This document shows positions 48,619-58,826 of a stretch of 64,000 nucleotides of DNA, piece by piece. A model generated the notes under the pieces. It was not told where the DNA came from. It saw nothing but the letters and a program-made list of their open reading frames with translations, and did no database searches. Position 1 is the first letter of the stretch, and each line of letters starts with the position of its first letter. The DNA comes from Escherichia coli (GTDB taxonomy: Bacteria > Pseudomonadota > Gammaproteobacteria > Enterobacterales > Enterobacteriaceae): the NCBI RefSeq assembly GCF_048403405.1, contig NZ_CP183129.1; one strand, given 5' to 3'. A program made the translations under genes and the position numbers.

Positions 48619-49515
48619 TTATACAAAAAGTGACAAAAAAGATCGGGTTTGATCACAGTCAGGGATCCCGGCTCGTCCACCGGGACGCGTGCATTTTAAC
48701 GCCGCCACACCGCTGGCGAAGCGAACTGACTCCGCTAAATTCCCACCGGTTGCCAATGCCACCGCCAGCGCACCGTGAAAAACATCGCCCGCACCGGTGG
48801 TATCTACCACATCAACTTTGAAAGCCGGTTGATGTTGACGCCCGCCATTTTCCAGCCAGTCGCAGCCGGCACTCCCCTGGGTCACATAGACATGACCATT
48901 TGTGAGCGTTTGTGCCTGTTTTAGCGCACTGGCCATCTCTTTCACGCCCGTTAAGCGCGCCAGACCCGGTTCTGAAAAGGCCGCGTGATCGCTTAATGCC
49001 ACCAGCTCGCTGATATCCTGCGGCGTAATGTCCCCGTCCAGAACGGTCATCACGCCCGCCTGCCGGGCCAGGGTAAAGGCTTTTTTAGCGCCGTCGTGCC
49101 AGCGCACATCTGCCAGCACAACGTCCCACTGAGAGAAATCAATTTTCTCCAACCACTCTGCGTCAGGCAGCAGATCCGGGCTGGGGTAGTTAATGATTAT
49201 CCGCTCGCCTTTGGCATCCACCATGATGGCGGATTGCGAAGATTTCGCCTGGTTATACCGTTTGGTGTAACGGGTGTTAACGCCCCAGGATTCCAGCTCT
49301 GCCAGCAGGCTGTTGCCCGTGTCGTCATCACCGACGCGACCAATAAAATCGACCTGCGCCCCCAGCCTTGCCGCCGCAACCGCTGCCGTCGCCGCTGGCC
49401 CGCCACCAACTTCCGTATAATTTCTCGCCACGTATTTACCGCTCTCCGTCGGTAATCCTTCCACGTAATAAATACGATCCATCACGGTAATACCTACACA
49501 AGCAACACGAATCAT
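48619..49515 (-). CDS. yihV: 6-deoxy-6-sulfofructose kinase YihV (PfkB family, 298 aa)
   Basis: Ribokinase/PfkB family (GAGDVFHGAL motif); synteny. Confidence 0.93.
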   Translation of the reverse strand: MIRVACVGITVMDRIYYVEGLPTESGKYVARNYTEVGGGPAATAAVAAARLGAQVDFIGRVGDDDTGNSLLAELESWGVNTRYTKRYNQAKSSQSAIMVDAKGERIIINYPSPDLLPDAEWLEKIDFSQWDVVLADVRWHDGAKKAFTLARQAGVMTVLDGDITPQDISELVALSDHAAFSEPGLARLTGVKEMASALKQAQTLTNGHVYVTQGSAGCDWLENGGRQHQPAFKVDVVDTTGAGDVFHGALAVALATGGNLAESVRFASGVAALKCTRPGGRAGIPDCDQTRSFLSLFV

Positions 49516-49682
49516 GGTCATTCCTTAAGCATTTTGGGATGCGTTCATTTTAATTTCACCAATTGTTTAAAAAGTGACGGCTGTCAATTTTTTGACGATA
49601 AATTACAAATACGATCAAAAACAGACAAGCAAAGCATGTCATAAATGACAAAAAGTGACATCACTGTATTCAGGAGAGGGTT

Positions 49683-50579
49683 ATGGCAGCAATCGCGTTT
49701 ATCGGTTTAGGACAAATGGGTTCGCCAATGGCGAGCAATTTATTGCAGCAAGGGCATCAACTTCGCGTCTTTGATGTGAACGCCGAAGCTGTGCGGCATC
49801 TGGTAGACAAAGGTGCGACTCCCGCCGCCAACCCGGCGCAGGCCGCTAAAGATGCCGAATTTATCATTACCATGTTGCCGAATGGCGATCTGGTGCGCAG
49901 CGTGTTGTTCGGTGAAAACGGCGTTTGCGAAAGCTTATCTACCGATGCGCTGGTCATCGATATGTCGACCATCCACCCGCTGCAAACCGATAAATTGATT
50001 GCCGATATGCAAGCCAAAGGCTTCAGCATGATGGATGTTCCGGTAGGCCGTACTTCTGCAAATGCCATTACCGGTACTCTGTTACTGCTGGCTGGCGGCA
50101 CCGCTGAACAAGTTGAACGCGCCACACCGATCCTGATGGCGATGGGCAGTGAGTTGATCAACGCGGGCGGTCCGGGCATGGGGATCCGCGTTAAGCTCAT
50201 CAACAACTACATGAGCATCGCGCTCAATGCGCTTTCGGCAGAAGCCGCTGTTTTGTGCGAAGCCCTGAATCTTCCCTTCGATGTTGCCGTCAAGGTGATG
50301 AGCGGCACCGCCGCCGGTAAAGGCCACTTCACCACTTCCTGGCCAAACAAAGTCCTCAGCGGGGATCTTTCTCCCGCCTTCATGATCGATCTTGCCCATA
50401 AGGATCTTGGTATCGCCCTTGATGTCGCCAACCAGCTGCATGTGCCAATGCCGCTGGGGGCCGCCTCACGGGAGGTTTATAGCCAGGCGCGCGCAGCGGG
50501 TCGTGGTCGCCAGGACTGGTCCGCCATTCTGGAACAAGTCCGTGTCAGTGCCGGGATGACTGCCAAAGTAAAAATGTAA
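49683..50579 (+). CDS. yihU: 3-sulfolactaldehyde reductase YihU (298 aa)
   Basis: beta-hydroxyacid dehydrogenase family with N-terminal GxGxMG nucleotide fold ([14 protein letters not shown]). Confidence 0.93.
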
Positions 50580-50602
50580 CGACTGGATAAAGGAATAAAT
50601 GA

Positions 50603-51481
50603 ATGAATAAGTACACCATCAACGACATTACACGCGCATCGGGCGGTTTTGCCATGCTGGCGGTCGATCAACGCGAAGCCATGCGCATGATGTTTGCCGC
50701 GGCTGGGGCACCCGCTCCAGTAGCCGATAGCGTTTTAACTGATTTCAAAGTTAACGCTGCAAAGGCCCTCTCGCCTTATGCCTCGGCGATTCTGGTGGAT
50801 CAGCAATTCTGTTACCGCCAGGTGGTTGAGCAAAACGCGATTGCCAAAAGTTGCGCCATGATTGTCGCCGCCGATGAGTTCATTCCTGGCAACGGTATTC
50901 CGGTAGATAGCGTGGTCATTGACCGCAAAATCAATCCGCTACAAATCAAACAAGACGGTGGCAAAGCCTTAAAACTGCTGGTGCTGTGGCGTAGTGATGA
51001 AGATGCGCAGCAACGTCTGGATATGGTGAAAGAGTTTAACGAACTGTGCCACTCACACGGCCTGGTAAGCATTATTGAGCCAGTCGTCCGCCCACCACGT
51101 CGTGGCGATAAATTCGATCGCGAACAAGCGATCATCGATGCTGCCAAAGAGCTGGGCGACAGTGGCGCTGACCTCTACAAAGTTGAAATGCCGCTTTACG
51201 GTAAAGGTCCGCAACAAGAGCTTCTCAGTGCTTCACAACGTCTGAATGACCATATCAATATGCCGTGGGTGATCCTCTCATCCGGTGTCGACGAAAAACT
51301 GTTCCCGCGTGCCGTACGCGTGGCAATGACAGCGGGTGCATCGGGCTTCCTGGCTGGTCGTGCCGTCTGGGCATCGGTTGTCGGTTTACCAGACAACGAG
51401 CTGATGCTGCGTGACGTTTGCGCACCGAAATTACAACAACTTGGCGATATCGTCGACGAAATGATGGCTAAACGCCGTTAA
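50603..51481 (+). CDS. yihT: 6-deoxy-6-sulfofructose-1-phosphate aldolase YihT (292 aa)
   Basis: Class I aldolase (tagatose-bisphosphate aldolase-like) family; synteny. Confidence 0.93.
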
Positions 51482-51496
51482 GATGGGGATACAAAA

Positions 51497-52738
51497 ATGA
51501 AATGGTTTAACACCTTAAGTCACAACCGTTGGCTGGAACAGGAAACCGATCGCATCTTTGATTTTGGTAAAAATTCCGTAGTACCGACCGGATTTGGCTG
51601 GTTAGGCAATAAAGGGCAAATCAAAGAAGAGATGGGCACCCATCTGTGGATCACAGCCCGTATGCTGCACGTTTATTCTGTTGCTGCGGCGATGGGTCGA
51701 CCTGGCGCTTACTCGTTGGTTGATCACGGTATCAAAGCGATGAACGGCGCGCTGCGCGATAAAAAATATGGCGGTTGGTATGCCTGCGTGAATGACGAGG
51801 GCGTAGTGGATGCCTCCAAACAGGGCTATCAACACTTCTTTGCTCTGCTGGGTGCTGCCAGCGCCGTCACTACCGGTCATCCGGAAGCGCGCAAGCTGCT
51901 CGATTACACCATTGAAATTATCGAGAAATACTTCTGGAGCGAAGAAGAGCAGATGTGCCTGGAGTCCTGGGACGAAGCCTTCAGCAAAACCGAAGAGTAC
52001 CGCGGCGGCAATGCCAATATGCACGCAGTGGAAGCTTTCTTAATTGTTTATGACGTCACGCATGACAAAAAATGGCTGGATCGCGCCATTCGCGTGGCTT
52101 CCGTGATTATCCACGATGTCGCCAGAAATAATCATTATCGCGTTAACGAGCACTTCGATACCCAGTGGAATCCGCTGCCGGATTACAACAAAGATAACCC
52201 GGCGCACCGCTTCCGCGCGTTCGGAGGTACTCCGGGCCACTGGATCGAATGGGGCCGTTTAATGCTGCACATCCACGCTGCCCTGGAAGCCCGCTGCGAA
52301 CAGCCGCCTGCCTGGCTGCTAGAAGATGCCAAAGGTCTGTTTAACGCCACCGTGCGCGATGCCTGGGCACCCGATGGCGCGGACGGGATTGTTTATACCG
52401 TTGACTGGGAAGGAAAACCGGTGGTCCGCGAACGTGTACGTTGGCCTATCGTCGAAGCGATGGGTACGGCTTACGCGCTCTACACCGTCACCGGCGATCG
52501 CCAGTACGAAACCTGGTATCAGACATGGTGGGACTACTGCATTAAGTACCTGATGGACTATGAAAATGGTTCATGGTGGCAGGAGCTGGACGCGGATAAT
52601 AAAGTCACCACCAAAGTCTGGGACGGTAAACAGGATATTTATCACCTGCTGCATTGCCTGGTGATCCCGCGTATCCCGTTAGCCCCTGGTCTGGCTCCGG
52701 CTGTTGCCGCAGGCCTGCTGGACGTTAACGCGAAATAA
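51497..52738 (+). CDS. yihS: Sulfoquinovose isomerase YihS (413 aa)
   Basis: N-acylglucosamine 2-epimerase-like (alpha/alpha)6 family; synteny. Confidence 0.93.
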
Positions 52739-52796
52739 CTGAGCTGAAATAACGGCATATCAGGCTACATGCCGGGTATGTCGTTATTCAATATAG

Positions 52797-53708
52797 GTGC
52801 CTCGTATGCAAATCACCAACATGCATTGCAGTGGACAAACCGTTTCACTTGCCGCGGGGGATTATCACGCGACTATCGTGACGGTTGGTGCTGGTCTGGC
52901 TGAATTAACTTTTCAGGGTTGTCATTTAGTCATCCCACACAAACCCGAAGAGATGCCGCTGGCGCATCTGGGTAAAGTGCTTATTCCGTGGCCGAACCGG
53001 ATCGCCAACGGCTGTTATCGCTATCAGGGGCAGGACTATCAGTTACCCATTAATGAACATAGTTCAAAAGCCGCTATTCACGGGCTGCTTGCCTGGCGTG
53101 ACTGGCAAATTAGCGAATTAACCGCCACCAGCGTTACCCTGACAGCTTTTCTGCCGCCCAGTTACGGCTATCCGTTTATGCTGGCTTCACAAGTTGTTTA
53201 TTCGCTCAATGCACGCACGGGTCTTTCCGTTGAGATCGCAAGCCAGAATATTGGTACTGTGACCGCACCTTATGGTGTGGGTATTCATCCTTATTTAACC
53301 TGCAACTTAACATCTGTTGATGACTATCTTTTCCAGCTTCCGGCAGAACAGGTTTATGCCGTCGATGAGCACGCAAATCCGACAACGCTTCACCACGTTG
53401 ATGAGTTGGATTTAAATTTCACGCAGGCGAAAAAAATAGCCGCGACAAAAATCGACCACACCTTTAAAACCGCTAATGATCTGTGGGAAATGACCATTAC
53501 CCATCCACAGCATTTGCTTTCGGTGAGCCTCTGTTCCGATCAACCCTGGGTGCAGGTTTATAGCGGTGAAAAATTACAGCGTCAGGGACTGGCAGTTGAA
53601 CCTATGAGTTGCCCGCCTGATGCGTTTAATTCCGGCACCGATTTAATATTACTGCAACCCGGAAAAACACACCGCCTGTTTTTTAATATTTACGGACAGA
53701 GAAAATAA
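52797..53708 (+). CDS. yihR: Aldose-1-epimerase-family protein YihR (mutarotase-like; about 300-303 aa, start uncertain between GTG 52797 and ATG 52806)
   Basis: Galactose mutarotase-like family; an in-frame TAG immediately precedes 52797. Confidence 0.88.
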   Translation: MPRMQITNMHCSGQTVSLAAGDYHATIVTVGAGLAELTFQGCHLVIPHKPEEMPLAHLGKVLIPWPNRIANGCYRYQGQDYQLPINEHSSKAAIHGLLAWRDWQISELTATSVTLTAFLPPSYGYPFMLASQVVYSLNARTGLSVEIASQNIGTVTAPYGVGIHPYLTCNLTSVDDYLFQLPAEQVYAVDEHANPTTLHHVDELDLNFTQAKKIAATKIDHTFKTANDLWEMTITHPQHLLSVSLCSDQPWVQVYSGEKLQRQGLAVEPMSCPPDAFNSGTDLILLQPGKTHRLFFNIYGQRK

Positions 53709-53912
53709 CTTGTATTGATTAGCAGTCAAAATCATTGAAGAACATTTCACTCGCTAAAGGCAACGTTATGTATCATCAATTTATTAAGTTAAAAACAGCT
53801 CAGCTTCTTTAAAGTTTATATATATCAGTTTTATGAGAATCATTTTACATAAGCCTGTAATAACAATAACAGGAAGGAAACAACCTCGTTCTCAACTCTA
53901 TGGAGATTATTT

Positions 53913-55949
53913 ATGGATACGCCACGCCCACAGTTATTAGATTTTCAATTTCATCAGAATAACGACAGTCTTACCCTACGTTTTCAGGGCCGTCTTATTT
54001 TAACCCATAGTAAAGATAATCCTTGTTTATGGATTGGTTCAGGTATTGCGGATATCGATATGTTCCGCGGCAATTTCAGCATTAAAGATAAATTGCAGGA
54101 GAAGATTGCGCTCACCGACGCTACCGTCAGCCAGTCACCGGATGGCTGGTTAATCCATTTCAGCCGTGGTTCTGACATTAGCGCCACGCTGCGTATCTCT
54201 GCCGACGAACAGGGCCGTTTATTGCTGGAACTACAAAACGACAACCTTAACCACAACCGTATCTGGCTGCGCCTTGCCGCTCAACCAGAGGACCATATCT
54301 ACGGCTGCGGTGAACAATTCTCCTACTTTGATCTGCGCGGCAAACCGTTCCCGCTATGGACCAGTGAACAAGGCGTTGGTCGCAACAAGCAAACCTATGT
54401 CACCTGGCAGGCCGACTGCAAAGAGAACGCGGGCGGCGACTATTACTGGACTTTCTTCCCACAGCCTACGTTTGTCAGCACGCAGAAGTATTACTGCCAT
54501 GTTGATAACAGTTGCTACATGAACTTCGACTTTAGCGCCCCGGAATACCATGAACTGGCGCTGTGGGAAGACAAAGCAACGCTGCGTTTTGAATGTGCTG
54601 ATACATACATCTCCCTGCTGGAAAAATTAACTGCCCTGCTGGGACGCCAGCCAGAACTGCCCGACTGGATTTATGACGGGGTAACGCTCGGCATTCAGGG
54701 CGGGACGGAAGTGTGTCAGAAGAAACTGGACACCATGCGTAACGCGGGTGTGAAGGTTAACGGCATCTGGGCGCAGGACTGGTCCGGGATCCGTATGACC
54801 TCTTTTGGCAAACGCGTAATGTGGAACTGGAAGTGGAACAGCGAAAACTATCCGCAACTGGACTCACGTATTAAGCAGTGGAACAAAGAGGGCGTGCAGT
54901 TCCTGGCCTATATCAACCCGTATGTAGCCAGCGATAAAGATCTCTGCGAAGAGGCGGCAAAGCGCGGTTATCTGGCAAAAGATGCCTCTGGCGGCGACTA
55001 TCTGGTGGAGTTTGGCGAGTTCTATGGCGGCGTTGTCGATCTCACCAATCCAGAAGCCTACGCCTGGTTCAAGGAAGTGATCAAAAAGAACATGATTGAA
55101 CTTGGCTGCGGCGGCTGGATGGCTGACTTCGGCGAGTATCTGCCCACCGACACGTACCTGCATAACGGCGTCAGCGCGGAGATTATGCATAACGCCTGGC
55201 CTGCGCTGTGGGCGAAATGTAACTACGAAGCCCTTGAAGAAACGGGCAAGCTCGGCGAGATCCTTTTCTTTATGCGCGCCGGTTCTACCGGTAGCCAGAA
55301 ATACTCCACCATGATGTGGGCGGGTGACCAGAACGTCGACTGGAGTCTGGACGATGGCCTGGCGTCGGTTGTCCCGGCGGCGCTGTCGCTGGCAATGACC
55401 GGACATGGCCTGCATCACAGCGACATTGGCGGTTACACAACCCTGTTTGAGATGAAGCGCAGCAAAGAGCTGCTACTGCGCTGGTGTGATTTCAGCGCCT
55501 TCACGCCGATGATGCGCACCCACGAAGGCAACCGTCCGGGCGACAACTGGCAGTTTGACGGCGACGCGGAAACTATCGCCCATTTTGCCCGTATGACCAC
55601 CGTCTTCACCACCCTGAAACCTTACCTGAAAGAGGCCGTCGCGCTGAATGCGAAGTCCGGTCTGCCGGTCATGCGCCCGCTGTTCCTGCATTACGAAGAC
55701 GATGCGCACACTTACACCCTGAAATATCAGTACCTGTTAGGTCGCGACATTCTGGTCGCTCCGGTGCATGAAGAAGGCCGTAGCGACTGGACGCTCTATC
55801 TGCCGGAGGATAACTGGGTCCATGCCTGGACGGGTGAAGCATTCCGGGGCGGGGAAGTGACCGTTAATGCGCCCATCGGCAAGCCGCCGGTCTTTTATCG
55901 CGCCGATAGCGAATGGGCGGCACTGTTCGCGTCGTTAAAAAGCATCTAA
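53913..55949 (+). CDS. yihQ: Sulfoquinovosidase YihQ (GH31 family, 678 aa)
   Basis: GH31 alpha-glucosidase family signatures (WNDMNE-like GIWAQDWSG, catalytic Asp region); synteny. Confidence 0.94.
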   Translation: MDTPRPQLLDFQFHQNNDSLTLRFQGRLILTHSKDNPCLWIGSGIADIDMFRGNFSIKDKLQEKIALTDATVSQSPDGWLIHFSRGSDISATLRISADEQGRLLLELQNDNLNHNRIWLRLAAQPEDHIYGCGEQFSYFDLRGKPFPLWTSEQGVGRNKQTYVTWQADCKENAGGDYYWTFFPQPTFVSTQKYYCHVDNSCYMNFDFSAPEYHELALWEDKATLRFECADTYISLLEKLTALLGRQPELPDWIYDGVTLGIQGGTEVCQKKLDTMRNAGVKVNGIWAQDWSGIRMTSFGKRVMWNWKWNSENYPQLDSRIKQWNKEGVQFLAYINPYVASDKDLCEEAAKRGYLAKDASGGDYLVEFGEFYGGVVDLTNPEAYAWFKEVIKKNMIELGCGGWMADFGEYLPTDTYLHNGVSAEIMHNAWPALWAKCNYEALEETGKLGEILFFMRAGSTGSQKYSTMMWAGDQNVDWSLDDGLASVVPAALSLAMTGHGLHHSDIGGYTTLFEMKRSKELLLRWCDFSAFTPMMRTHEGNRPGDNWQFDGDAETIAHFARMTTVFTTLKPYLKEAVALNAKSGLPVMRPLFLHYEDDAHTYTLKYQYLLGRDILVAPVHEEGRSDWTLYLPEDNWVHAWTGEAFRGGEVTVNAPIGKPPVFYRADSEWAALFASLKSI

Positions 55950-55994
55950 TCACATCCGCCCGTGGGGAAACTCATGGGCAAAGGGAGAACATCG

Positions 55995-57380
55995 ATGAGT
56001 CACATCACAACGGAAGATCCAGCAACTTTACGCCTGCCCTTTAAAGAGAAACTCTCTTACGGTATCGGCGATCTGGCCTCTAACATCCTGCTGGATATTG
56101 GTACGCTTTATCTTTTGAAGTTTTATACCGACGTTCTGGGGCTGCCCGGCACCTATGGCGGCATTATCTTTTTGATCTCGAAATTCTTTACCGCCTTTAC
56201 CGATATGGGAACCGGCATCATGTTGGATTCCCGACGCAAGATCGGTCCAAAAGGTAAATTCCGTCCTTTTATTCTGTATGCGTCATTCCCGGTTACCTTA
56301 CTGGCGATCGCCAACTTTATCGGTACGCCGTTCGATGTCACCGGTAAAACGGTGATGGCAACTATCCTGTTTATGCTTTATGGACTGTTTTTCAGCATGA
56401 TGAACTGTTCCTACGGCGCAATGGTGCCTGCCATCACCAAAAACCCCAACGAGCGCGCCTCACTGGCGGCATGGCGTCAGGGCGGCGCTACGCTGGGCCT
56501 GCTGCTGTGTACGGTGGGATTCGTACCAGTGATGAATCTTATCGAGGGGAATCAGAAACTTGGCTATATCTTCGCCGCCACGCTGTTTTCACTGTTCGGC
56601 CTGCTGTTTATGTGGATCTGCTACTCGGGCGTGAAAGAGCGTTATGTCGAAACCCAACCTGCTAATCCGGCGCAAAAGCCTGGCCTGTTGCAATCTTTCC
56701 GCGCAATTGCCGGTAACCGCCCGCTGTTCATTCTGTGTATTGCTAACCTCTGCACCTTAGGGGCGTTTAACGTCAAGCTCGCCATTCAGGTTTATTACAC
56801 CCAGTACGTGCTTAACGATCCCATCCTGTTGTCATATATGGGATTTTTCAGCATGGGCTGTATTTTCATCGGCGTGTTCCTGATGCCCGGCGCAGTCAGA
56901 CGTTTTGGTAAGAAGAAGGTCTATATCGGCGGCCTGCTGATTTGGGTGCTTGGCGATCTGCTCAACTATTTCTTTGGCGGCGGTTCGGTCAGCTTCGTGG
57001 CGTTCTCCTGCCTGGCATTCTTCGGCTCAGCGTTTGTTAACAGCCTGAACTGGGCGCTGGTTTCCGACACCGTGGAATATGGCGAATGGCGCACCGGCGT
57101 GCGTTCGGAAGGGACGGTCTACACCGGTTTCACCTTCTTTCGCAAAGTTTCTCAGGCGCTGGCTGGTTTCTTCCCCGGCTGGATGCTGACGCAAATCGGC
57201 TATGTGCCGAACGTCGCACAGGCTGACCACACTATTGAAGGGTTGCGCCAGCTGATCTTCATCTACCCAAGCGCACTGGCAGTAGTCACCATTGTGGCGA
57301 TGGGTTGCTTCTACAGTCTGAACGAGAAGATGTACGTCCGCATTGTTGAAGAGATAGAAGCCCGTAAACGCACGGCGTAA
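55995..57380 (+). CDS. yihP: GPH-family transporter YihP (461 aa)
   Basis: 12-TM glycoside-pentoside-hexuronide:cation symporter family; ATG at 55995 with SD AAGGGAG. Confidence 0.9.
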   Translation: MSHITTEDPATLRLPFKEKLSYGIGDLASNILLDIGTLYLLKFYTDVLGLPGTYGGIIFLISKFFTAFTDMGTGIMLDSRRKIGPKGKFRPFILYASFPVTLLAIANFIGTPFDVTGKTVMATILFMLYGLFFSMMNCSYGAMVPAITKNPNERASLAAWRQGGATLGLLLCTVGFVPVMNLIEGNQKLGYIFAATLFSLFGLLFMWICYSGVKERYVETQPANPAQKPGLLQSFRAIAGNRPLFILCIANLCTLGAFNVKLAIQVYYTQYVLNDPILLSYMGFFSMGCIFIGVFLMPGAVRRFGKKKVYIGGLLIWVLGDLLNYFFGGGSVSFVAFSCLAFFGSAFVNSLNWALVSDTVEYGEWRTGVRSEGTVYTGFTFFRKVSQALAGFFPGWMLTQIGYVPNVAQADHTIEGLRQLIFIYPSALAVVTIVAMGCFYSLNEKMYVRIVEEIEARKRTA

Positions 57381-57391
57381 TTATAATAAAC

Positions 57392-57409
57392 AACGCCCTG
57401 CGGGGCGTT
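57392..57409 (+). other. Intercistronic stem-loop between yihP and yihO
   Basis: AACGCCC-TGCG-GGGCGTT hairpin directly before the yihO SD; no T-run. Confidence 0.35.
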
Positions 57410-57422
57410 ATAAGGAGTGATT

Positions 57423-58826
57423 ATGTCTGACCATAATCCACTGACATTAAGACTGAATCTGCGGGAAAAAATCGCCTATGGTATGGGCGACGTCGGTTCG
57501 AATTTAATGCTCTGCATCGGTACTCTGTATCTCCTCAAATTTTATACCGATGAATTAGGGATGCCTGCTTACTATGGCGGGATTATCTTTCTGGTGGCGA
57601 AGTTTTTTACCGCGTTTACCGATATGCTCACCGGATTTTTACTCGATTCGCGGAAAAATATTGGGCCTAAAGGAAAGTTCAGGCCGTTTATTTTATACGC
57701 AGCGGTTCCGGCGGCGTTAATTGCAACGCTCCAGTTTATCGCCACCACTTTTAGTTTGCCGGTTAAAACGACGATTGCCACCGCACTGTTTATGATGTTT
57801 GGGCTTTCATACAGTCTGATGAACTGCTCGTATGGCGCGATGATCCCGGCCATTACCAAAAACCCGAATGAGCGCGCGCAGCTCGCGGCTTACCGCCAGG
57901 GTGGTGCAACCATAGGGCTATTGATTTGTACCGTGGCGTTTATTCCGTTGCAGTCGCTTTTTTCTGACTCCACCGTCGGTTATGCCTGCGCGGCACTGAT
58001 GTTCTCCATTGGTGGCTTTATTTTTATGATGCTGTGCTACAGAGGCGTCAAAGAGCATTATGTGGACACAGCGCCAACCGGACATAAAGCCAATATTCTC
58101 AAATCTTTTTGCGCAATATTTCGAAATCCGCCATTGCTGGTTTTATGCATTGCTAACCTGTGTACTCTGGCGGCATTTAATATCAAACTGGCGATTCAGG
58201 TCTATTACACCCAGTATGTGCTGAATGATATTAATTTATTATCGTGGATGGGATTTTTCAGTATGGGATGTATCCTCGTCGGCGTATTACTGGTGCCATT
58301 AACTGTAAAATGTTTTGGTAAAAAACAGGTTTATTTAGCTGGCATGGTGCTATGGGCGGTTGGTGATATCCTGAATTATTTCTGGGGAAGTAACTCTTTC
58401 ACTTTCGTCATGTTCTCTTGTGTCGCCTTTTTTGGCACGGCCTTTGTGAACAGCCTGAACTGGGCACTGGTGCCAGATACCGTAGATTACGGTGAATGGA
58501 AAACCGGTATTCGTGCCGAAGGTTCTGTTTATACCGGTTATACCTTCTTTCGTAAAATTTCTGCCGCACTTGCTGGCTTCTTGCCAGGCATTATGCTGAC
58601 GCAAATCGGTTATGTTCCCAACATCGCGCAAAGTGATGCGACATTACAGGGTTTGCGTCAGCTCATTTTTATCTGGCCTTGTGCACTGGCAATTATTGCT
58701 GCATTGACGATGGGATTCTTTTACACACTCAATGAAAAACGGTTTGCATTGATTATTGAGGAAATCAACCAACGCAAAAATAAAGAGATGGCGACAGAAG
58801 AAAAAACGGCTTCCGTAACGTTATAA
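57423..58826 (+). CDS. yihO: Sulfoquinovose transporter YihO (GPH family, 467 aa)
   Basis: Paralog of YihP; ATG at 57423 with SD AAGGAG. Confidence 0.92.
   Translation: MSDHNPLTLRLNLREKIAYGMGDVGSNLMLCIGTLYLLKFYTDELGMPAYYGGIIFLVAKFFTAFTDMLTGFLLDSRKNIGPKGKFRPFILYAAVPAALIATLQFIATTFSLPVKTTIATALFMMFGLSYSLMNCSYGAMIPAITKNPNERAQLAAYRQGGATIGLLICTVAFIPLQSLFSDSTVGYACAALMFSIGGFIFMMLCYRGVKEHYVDTAPTGHKANILKSFCAIFRNPPLLVLCIANLCTLAAFNIKLAIQVYYTQYVLNDINLLSWMGFFSMGCILVGVLLVPLTVKCFGKKQVYLAGMVLWAVGDILNYFWGSNSFTFVMFSCVAFFGTAFVNSLNWALVPDTVDYGEWKTGIRAEGSVYTGYTFFRKISAALAGFLPGIMLTQIGYVPNIAQSDATLQGLRQLIFIWPCALAIIAALTMGFFYTLNEKRFALIIEEINQRKNKEMATEEKTASVTL

Follow-up and report, generated by a model that had tools for sequence, protein, structure and literature searches.

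The yihR-yihQ junction in the window

The window analysed here is a 64,000-nucleotide stretch of Escherichia coli DNA (contig NZ_CP183129.1 of assembly GCF_048403405.1) that carries a sulfoquinovose cassette, whose minus strand encodes csqR (yihW) and yihV and whose plus strand encodes yihU-T-S-R-Q-P-O-ompL. The gene for sulfoquinovose mutarotase (aldose-1-epimerase), yihR, is a plus-strand open reading frame at 52806-53708 with its ATG at 52806, and the sulfoquinovosidase gene yihQ follows on the same strand at 53913-55949 with its ATG at 53913. Gene starts were taken from the RefSeq record of E. coli TUM1886, which matches the 801-bp junction query at 100%. Between the two genes lies a spacer of 204 bp (53709-53912) with a GC content of 29.9%, compared with 50.4% for the whole window. 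Across the 64 kb, no more than 0.13% of 204-bp windows equal it in AT-richness, and the GC minimum of the window (27.5%) falls inside the spacer. The remaining plus-strand gaps from yihU to ompL measure 23, 15, 67, 45, 42 and 66 bp, which makes the spacer three times as long as the next largest gap of the block.

A first-pass annotation of this DNA had described an AT-rich 204-bp gap in an otherwise tightly packed and wholly intact cluster, and had taken the gap as a sign of an internal promoter before yihQ. The gap was borne out with ends at 53708 and 53913, and tight packing is a fair description of the other gaps (15-67 bp). Intactness holds for ten genes (csqR/yihW, yihV, yihU, T, S, R, Q, P, O and ompL), all intact coding sequences in the TUM1886 record, but not for an eleventh, tauE, which is missing here and which related cassettes have in exactly the yihR-yihQ gap. 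Beyond the cassette, the stretch just between ompL and the convergent yihN gave sub-threshold matches to the REP-derived family naRNA4 on both strands (59589-59661), probably a REP element.

The gap corresponds to the intergenic region between b3879 and b3878 of K-12 MG1655, with the same position and the same flanking genes; as such, it is an ordinary and already known K-12 intergenic region, for which yihQ promoter candidates had been predicted before. The window spacer equals the 198-bp K-12 spacer plus a 6-bp duplication and seven substitutions, and the alignment of the spacer with short flanks is 97% identical over 324 columns. The duplicated hexamer, AATAAC, is present twice (53859-53870) inside a CCTGT...ACAGG inverted repeat at 53854-53873 and widens its loop from 4 nt in MG1655 to 10 nt in the window strain. 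The repeat is kept as CCTGTAA(T/C)AACAGG in K-12, O157 and H10407, and only for the minus strand of O157 did it register as a weak terminator-like hairpin. Of the flanking proteins, YihR of the window is 95% identical in amino acids to YihR of K-12 and likewise to YihR of O157, and YihQ is 99% identical to that of K-12.

The permease gene tauE at the same junction

The junction query found matches in 3973 E. coli genomes, about a third of which showed a split match. The cause of the split in O157:H7 is an 876-bp gene annotated as 'sulfite exporter TauE/SafE family protein', and the junction reads yihR, 60 bp, tauE, 107 bp, yihQ; enterotoxigenic E. coli H10407 has the same arrangement. Other genomes of the species thus hold an additional gene between the two genes that flank the spacer here. 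The tauE junction occurs in 1297 of the 5426 complete E. coli genomes (about a quarter) and the K-12-type spacer in 2633, which together account for nearly all of the 3973 genomes with a junction. The haplotype of the window, at 99% identity or more, was present in only 159 of the 2633 genomes with a K-12-type spacer. Since the encoded protein matches Pfam PF01925 (E = 8e-35) and dN/dS between two E. coli alleles is 0.05, tauE is a real, functional gene under purifying selection. In O157:H7, H10407 and Salmonella enterica, the genes flanking tauE are those of the window and the last 68 bp before yihQ are homologous; these genomes differ from the window in their intact 876-bp TauE/SafE permease gene, which is absent here.

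A few rare junction variants were also found, all of which are secondary damage. Some carry IS1 or IS5 insertions. In BL21-AI and in the yak isolate QML220614, the yihQ-proximal spacer and the 5' end of yihQ are deleted and yihQ is annotated as a pseudogene, so BL21-type strains would be expected to be without sulfoquinovosidase. In strain MLI104K2, the tauE position is taken by 1004 bp (L084 2117-3120) made up of 50% T and 11% A, for which the annotation gives a hypothetical protein on the minus strand. This was considered as a third junction gene and rejected, given its T-richness and the fact that only its ends match tauE; probably it is a tauE corrupted by sequencing or assembly.

The polarity of the difference was assessed in 25 enterobacterial cassettes, obtained by a YihQ scan with one genome per species and typed for gene order by tblastn, with outgroups from genera other than Escherichia. 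This typing placed tauE between yihR and yihQ in Citrobacter sp. wls619 and Superficieibacter electus. The same yihR-tauE-yihQ order was read for S. enterica from the genomic context of its TauE orthologue (87% identical). These three have the cassettes closest to that of E. coli, with 96-97% identity in YihS and 68-71% in YihR, compared with 54-61% for YihR in the other enterobacterial cassettes that have yihR. Outgroup identity to E. coli is 86-88% for TauE, on par with YihQ (85-87%) and YihP (84-86%), which indicates that tauE co-diverged with the cassette. Within E. coli, the K-12-type and O157-type YihR proteins are each 95% identical to that of the window, and the two forms are therefore sister alleles. 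Since the closest outgroup cassettes have tauE at the same position, parsimony makes the K-12-type gap a derived loss.

Lengths of the gaps point in the same direction. A yihQ immediately behind yihR or yihS in other Enterobacterales is preceded by a gap of 12-62 bp, and a yihQ behind tauE, O157 included, by one of 107-123 bp. The spacer is thus 3-15 times longer than the corresponding gaps of cassettes with no tauE at the junction. Taken together, the leaders on either side of tauE measure 167 bp in O157 and 211 bp in Salmonella, against 198-204 bp for the K-12-type spacer.

Gene content varies further across the 25 cassettes: some lineages have no tauE and some no yihR. In strain RIT691, Kluyvera genomosp. 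1 and Pantoea stewartii, tauE was located after yihQ, between yihQ and yihP; the permease gene has therefore used two slots in enterobacterial sulfo-EMP clusters.

Residual homology and origin of the spacer

Alignment with the tauE alleles divides the spacer into three segments. The yihQ-proximal leader (53845-53912, plus strand), which includes the Shine-Dalgarno motif TGGAGA of yihQ at 53901-53906, is common to the tauE alleles: its 68 bp align to the O157 junction with a score of 27 (z = 13), reached by none of 300 shuffles. The last 26 bp are recognisable in Salmonella too (z = 4.0), and the remaining Salmonella leader sequence is too diverged to be aligned to the window spacer. The middle segment (53777-53844) resembles the yihR-tauE leader of O157-type alleles. 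Its best local alignment, 53780-53822 against positions 1977-2019 of the O157-type locus L002, scores 18.5 (z = 4.6), a value reached by 0 of 300 dinucleotide shuffles, and blastn gives E = 0.003. The left third (53709-53776) has no statistically detectable homologue in the tauE alleles; local alignment scores of these 68 bp were no better than those of shuffles (z = -0.5 and 0.4), and against the 60-bp yihR-tauE leader only a weak collinear alignment was obtained.

When the spacer was aligned to the tauE alleles with one large deletion, 846-851 bp were missing, essentially the tauE open reading frame, and the best such alignment left a tauE coding overlap of no more than 20 nt on the 5' side and 10 nt on the 3' side. 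The lead of this alignment over shuffled controls was only about 2 SD, with one O157 control ahead of it, so the end points of the proposed deletion are tentative. A plus-strand mini-ORF of 14 codons, MYHQFIKLKTAQLL (53768-53812), has its ATG (53768) and an AAGG Shine-Dalgarno-like motif opposite the tauE start in the one-deletion alignment, and may be a vestigial tauE start. Neither blastn nor Smith-Waterman comparison with shuffles revealed a tauE coding remnant in the spacer. With a left third that has no homologue, a weak one-deletion alignment and no tauE remnant, the nucleotide-level case for a deletion is weak.

The absence of a coding remnant would also fit the opposite polarity, namely that the empty site is ancestral in E. 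coli and that tauE was inserted or recombined into O157-type strains. The locus is a strong recombination mosaic, as also reported in PMC12608037; the gene can evidently move, as its position after yihQ in Kluyvera, P. stewartii and RIT691 indicates; and divergence between the allele classes is highest next to the junction, where scar and tauE alleles are 78-85% identical over the final 100 bp of yihR. Such a peak would be expected for an old insertion/deletion polymorphism, and it would also fit introgression rather than a simple in-place deletion. An insertion is nonetheless unlikely. In the three outgroup genera whose cassettes are closest, tauE occupies exactly the same position, the divergence of TauE tracks that of YihQ and YihP, the spacer far exceeds tauE-less gaps in length and matches the summed tauE leaders, and its middle segment resembles the tauE leader. 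An old polymorphism, or import of either allele, may still stand in place of loss in situ.

Recombination is evident in the immediate surroundings of the spacer. Between the window and K-12, a block of low divergence at 53670-53975 is centred on the spacer. Strain 118UI is 100% identical to the window over this block, yet only 92-97% identical in parts of yihS and yihQ, a pattern that points to a recombination mosaic. Judged from these alignments, the yih locus is a fine-scale recombination mosaic, in line with the conclusion of Kaznadzey et al. 2025 for the whole yih cassette (PMC12608037).

Taken together, the K-12-type gap is most likely a deletion scar. The ancestral order in the lineage of Escherichia, Salmonella, some Citrobacter and Superficieibacter would have been yihU-T-S-R-tauE-yihQ-P-O, and the 876-bp tauE open reading frame would have been lost in an ancestor of the K-12-type E. 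coli cassettes. The two AT-rich leaders around tauE would thereby have been fused into one untranslated stretch of about 200 bp, which would now serve as the yihQ leader. The AT-rich gap had been read as a sign of a promoter, and the main reason for its length, the position of tauE in other cassettes, had been overlooked. More generally, where an AT-rich gap within an operon is unusually long, it can be the trace of a lost gene and not a purpose-built promoter.

Signals in the spacer and transcription of yihQ

In another reading, the spacer itself would encode something, be it a small protein, a small RNA or a repeat element. Two small open reading frames are present, one at 53735-53812 (25 codons, containing the 14-codon frame) and one at 53833-53940 (35 codons). 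As read from the alignment, the 14-codon frame persists in K-12, where it differs by one replacement and one synonymous substitution, and the 6-bp indel does not shift the 35-codon frame. However, open reading frames of these sizes (14, 25 or 35 codons) are expected by chance in AT-rich DNA, and Pfam gave no matches for the small frames of the spacer, including the enclosing 25-residue one. Rfam gave no match in the spacer even at E <= 1 (49000-60000 scanned), the predicted RNA fold was no more stable than shuffles (z = +1.05, with 173 of 200 shuffles folding at least as well), and a repeat search of the spacer returned only short matches, probably due to chance. A product encoded by the gap is therefore highly improbable.

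Promoter signals were sought in 53400-54200. The consensus scan gave no sigma-70-like site at threshold on the yihQ (plus) strand. With our own sigma-70 matrix, the best plus-strand candidate, TTCACT-19-TATCAT, scored 8.6, within the background of best scores per 280 bp (7.4 ± 1.5), although weak promoters may still be present at such scores. The only promoter-like consensus match of the region, TTGACT-16-TATTTT at 53702-53729, is on the minus strand and directed antisense into the 3' end of yihR; its score of 10.3 is above the 90th percentile of the background. No terminator-like site was found on either strand of 53400-54200, so there is no intrinsic terminator after yihR. A CRP-like site was predicted at 53831-53852, TTATGAGAATCATTTTACATAA, with 8 of 10 core positions of TGTGA-N6-TCACA. 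Its score with an approximate CRP matrix was 8.7, rank 19 among about 64,000 positions and similar to that of the best CRP-like site in the yihV/yihU spacer (9.0), a region where CRP binding has been demonstrated in K-12 (PMC5816610).

The yihV/yihU spacer (49516-49682) was also the reference for the regulator CsqR. It has a core of about 90 bp that hardly varies among Escherichia, Pectobacterium, Rahnella and Buttiauxella and that contains repeated A5-N-TGAC words and a TGAC-N4-GTCA palindrome; one word of the core, CAAAAAGTGACAA, recurs upstream of csqR at 48624. The A5-N-TGAC words are candidate CsqR boxes, and a matrix was built from the conserved yihV/yihU words, representing a motif derived in this analysis and not a published operator. 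No A5-N-TGAC box is present in the yihR-yihQ spacer, where the best matrix score is 7.0 (rank 254 in the window), and words of 10-14 nt common to the spacer and the yihV/yihU control region were not above the shuffled expectation. The suggestion that CsqR operator repeats might be found in 53709-53912 was thus answered negatively in two ways.

A secondary CsqR operator in the gap, which would place yihQ under direct sulfoquinovose control, would account for an induction of yihQ as strong as that of the genes adjoining the known operator, and CsqR is described as binding cooperatively and polymerising along DNA. Published CsqR binding is limited to yihU/V and yihV/W, and CsqR is classed as a single-target factor (PMC8249747, PMC8006165, PMC12608037). 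Genomic SELEX, as cited in later work, gave one strong peak at yihU/yihV with minor peaks elsewhere and none of these at the yihR/yihQ gap, and the EMSA targets reported are yihU/V and yihV/W only. With the conserved words missing as well, an operator in the gap is very unlikely.

Published K-12 expression data bear on how yihQ is transcribed. Raw reads on sulfoquinovose were 152/193 for yihU, 234/356 for yihT, 547/612 for yihS, 142/148 for yihR, 676/699 for yihQ, 204/212 for yihP, 149/169 for yihO and 25/13 for ompL, compared with 0-7 reads for the plus-strand cassette genes on glucose (PMC12608037 Table S3). All cassette genes named in that paper have a stated log2 fold change of at least 5 (PMC12608037), and the values retrieved, for ompL, yihO, yihS, yihQ and yihU, are 7.3-8.8. 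In addition, yihQ was described as 'barely dependent' on lactose, glycerol and galactose (PMC5816610). The similar fold changes, the near-nil basal expression and the weak response of yihQ to these sugars speak against a separate regulated promoter and fit a single CsqR-controlled input by read-through from the yihU promoter. Uniform induction of the genes, taken by itself, would fit such read-through and a promoter in the gap equally well.

Normalised to gene length, the counts in Table S3 of PMC12608037 correspond to about 467 reads/kb for yihS, 161 for yihR and 338 for yihQ on sulfoquinovose. Read density thus falls 2.9-fold from yihS to yihR and then rises 2.1-fold from yihR to yihQ. The rise fits either initiation within the gap or greater stability of the yihQ segment of the mRNA, and it counts against pure read-through. 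In K-12, the yihS/yihR spacer is longer by a GC-rich, repeat-like insert of about 70 bp, …CCCTCTCCCTAACCCTCTCCCCAAAGGGGCGAGGGGAC… (L001 5270-5406 compared with window 52739-52805), which is absent from the window strain and from O157. This insert may contribute to the drop from yihS to yihR in K-12, and read-through in the window strain may differ.

A dedicated, regulated promoter in the gap that starts a separate yihQ-yihP-yihO-ompL transcript is the main alternative to read-through, and we rate it as a real possibility, somewhat short of probable. Kaznadzey et al. 2018 predicted candidate yihQ promoters in silico and read qRT-PCR patterns as independent transcription of yihR and yihQ (PMC5816610), and a yihQPO-ompL operon has been named by other authors. 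Kaznadzey et al. 2018 also suggested that the long K-12 cassette, the same cluster as that of the window, is not one simple operon; the internal promoters mapped or inferred for the K-12 cassette are yihT P1-P3 and, from RNA polymerase binding, the yihS/yihR region. The higher read density of yihQ relative to yihR and the CRP-like site also speak for a start in the gap. So does sequence conservation: the spacer differs by 3.5% between the window and K-12, whereas synonymous sites in yihS, yihR and yihQ differ by 15-22%, making the spacer 4-6 times less diverged. This may mean functional constraint on the spacer, or else a younger common ancestor of the scar allele.

Against such a promoter stand the plus-strand sigma-70 score within background, the lack of CsqR-like words and of any reported CsqR binding at the gap, the lack of a terminator after yihR that would insulate a separate unit, and the loss of tauE, which explains the length of the gap with no need for a promoter. 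Furthermore, yihQ is nearly silent on glucose and barely responds to lactose, glycerol or galactose, so a promoter governed by CRP only does not explain an induction of about 250-fold (log2 fold change of 8). The literature searched reports no RNA polymerase binding, primer extension or 5' ends for the yihR/yihQ gap, and the supplements of Kim 2012 and Kaznadzey 2018 contain no yihQ entries. An internal promoter before yihQ, as proposed in the first-pass annotation, remains plausible from the earlier in silico candidates and the rise in K-12 read density, while the promoter prediction it called for returned no convincing sigma-70 match on the yihQ strand.

On balance, the spacer is likely to be the K-12-type allele of a variable junction, a scar of tauE loss, with yihQ transcribed mostly by read-through. 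Since the spacer contains neither a terminator nor a CsqR-like operator, most of the sulfoquinovose-induced yihQ-P-O-ompL mRNA would probably come from the CsqR-controlled yihU promoter. A weak start inside the gap, possibly assisted by CRP, might add to this read-through, a contribution to which we give a little less than an even chance; much the same degree of belief applies to a functionally significant promoter in the gap generally.

The exporter and the known forms of the cassette

The sulfo-EMP pathway has E. coli K-12 as its reference organism, in which the sulfonate exporter is still assigned by guesswork. Export of the end product in K-12 has been credited to some unspecified permease of the cluster, whose two MFS permeases are YihO and YihP. 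The product of tauE is a TauE/SafE (TSUP-family) permease and probably an exporter of the sulfonate end product. TSUP permeases in sulfoglycolysis clusters have been proposed as exporters of sulfonate products (PMC8873060). TauE of Cupriavidus necator H16, from another sulfonate pathway, belongs to the same Pfam family, PF01925. A conserved permease of this family, situated just at the place of the K-12 gap in Salmonella, in many other Enterobacterales and in about a quarter of E. coli, is hence an export candidate, which natural pairs of strains with and without tauE would allow to be tested.

In a more far-reaching and rather speculative reading, the ten-gene cluster of K-12 would be a reduced form whose ancestral eleventh gene exported DHPS; export would then have shifted to YihP or YihO, and the fused leader would have been kept as a sulfoquinovose-responsive start region for yihQ-P-O-ompL.

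The tauE gene is annotated in RefSeq, and no description of a tauE form of the E. coli or Salmonella cassette was found in the literature searched; other papers call the Salmonella cluster simply syntenic. Kaznadzey et al. 2025 distinguish a long form of ten genes and a short form of four, and tauE is mentioned nowhere in that paper (PMC12608037). Their long/short polymorphism resembles the present one in being a presence/absence difference of cassette genes at a single locus; it is dispersed across the species tree, which the authors explain by recombination (PMC12608037). Set against this long/short scheme, the 11-gene form with tauE would be a third structural variant of the yih cassette, and the K-12 form a reduced one.
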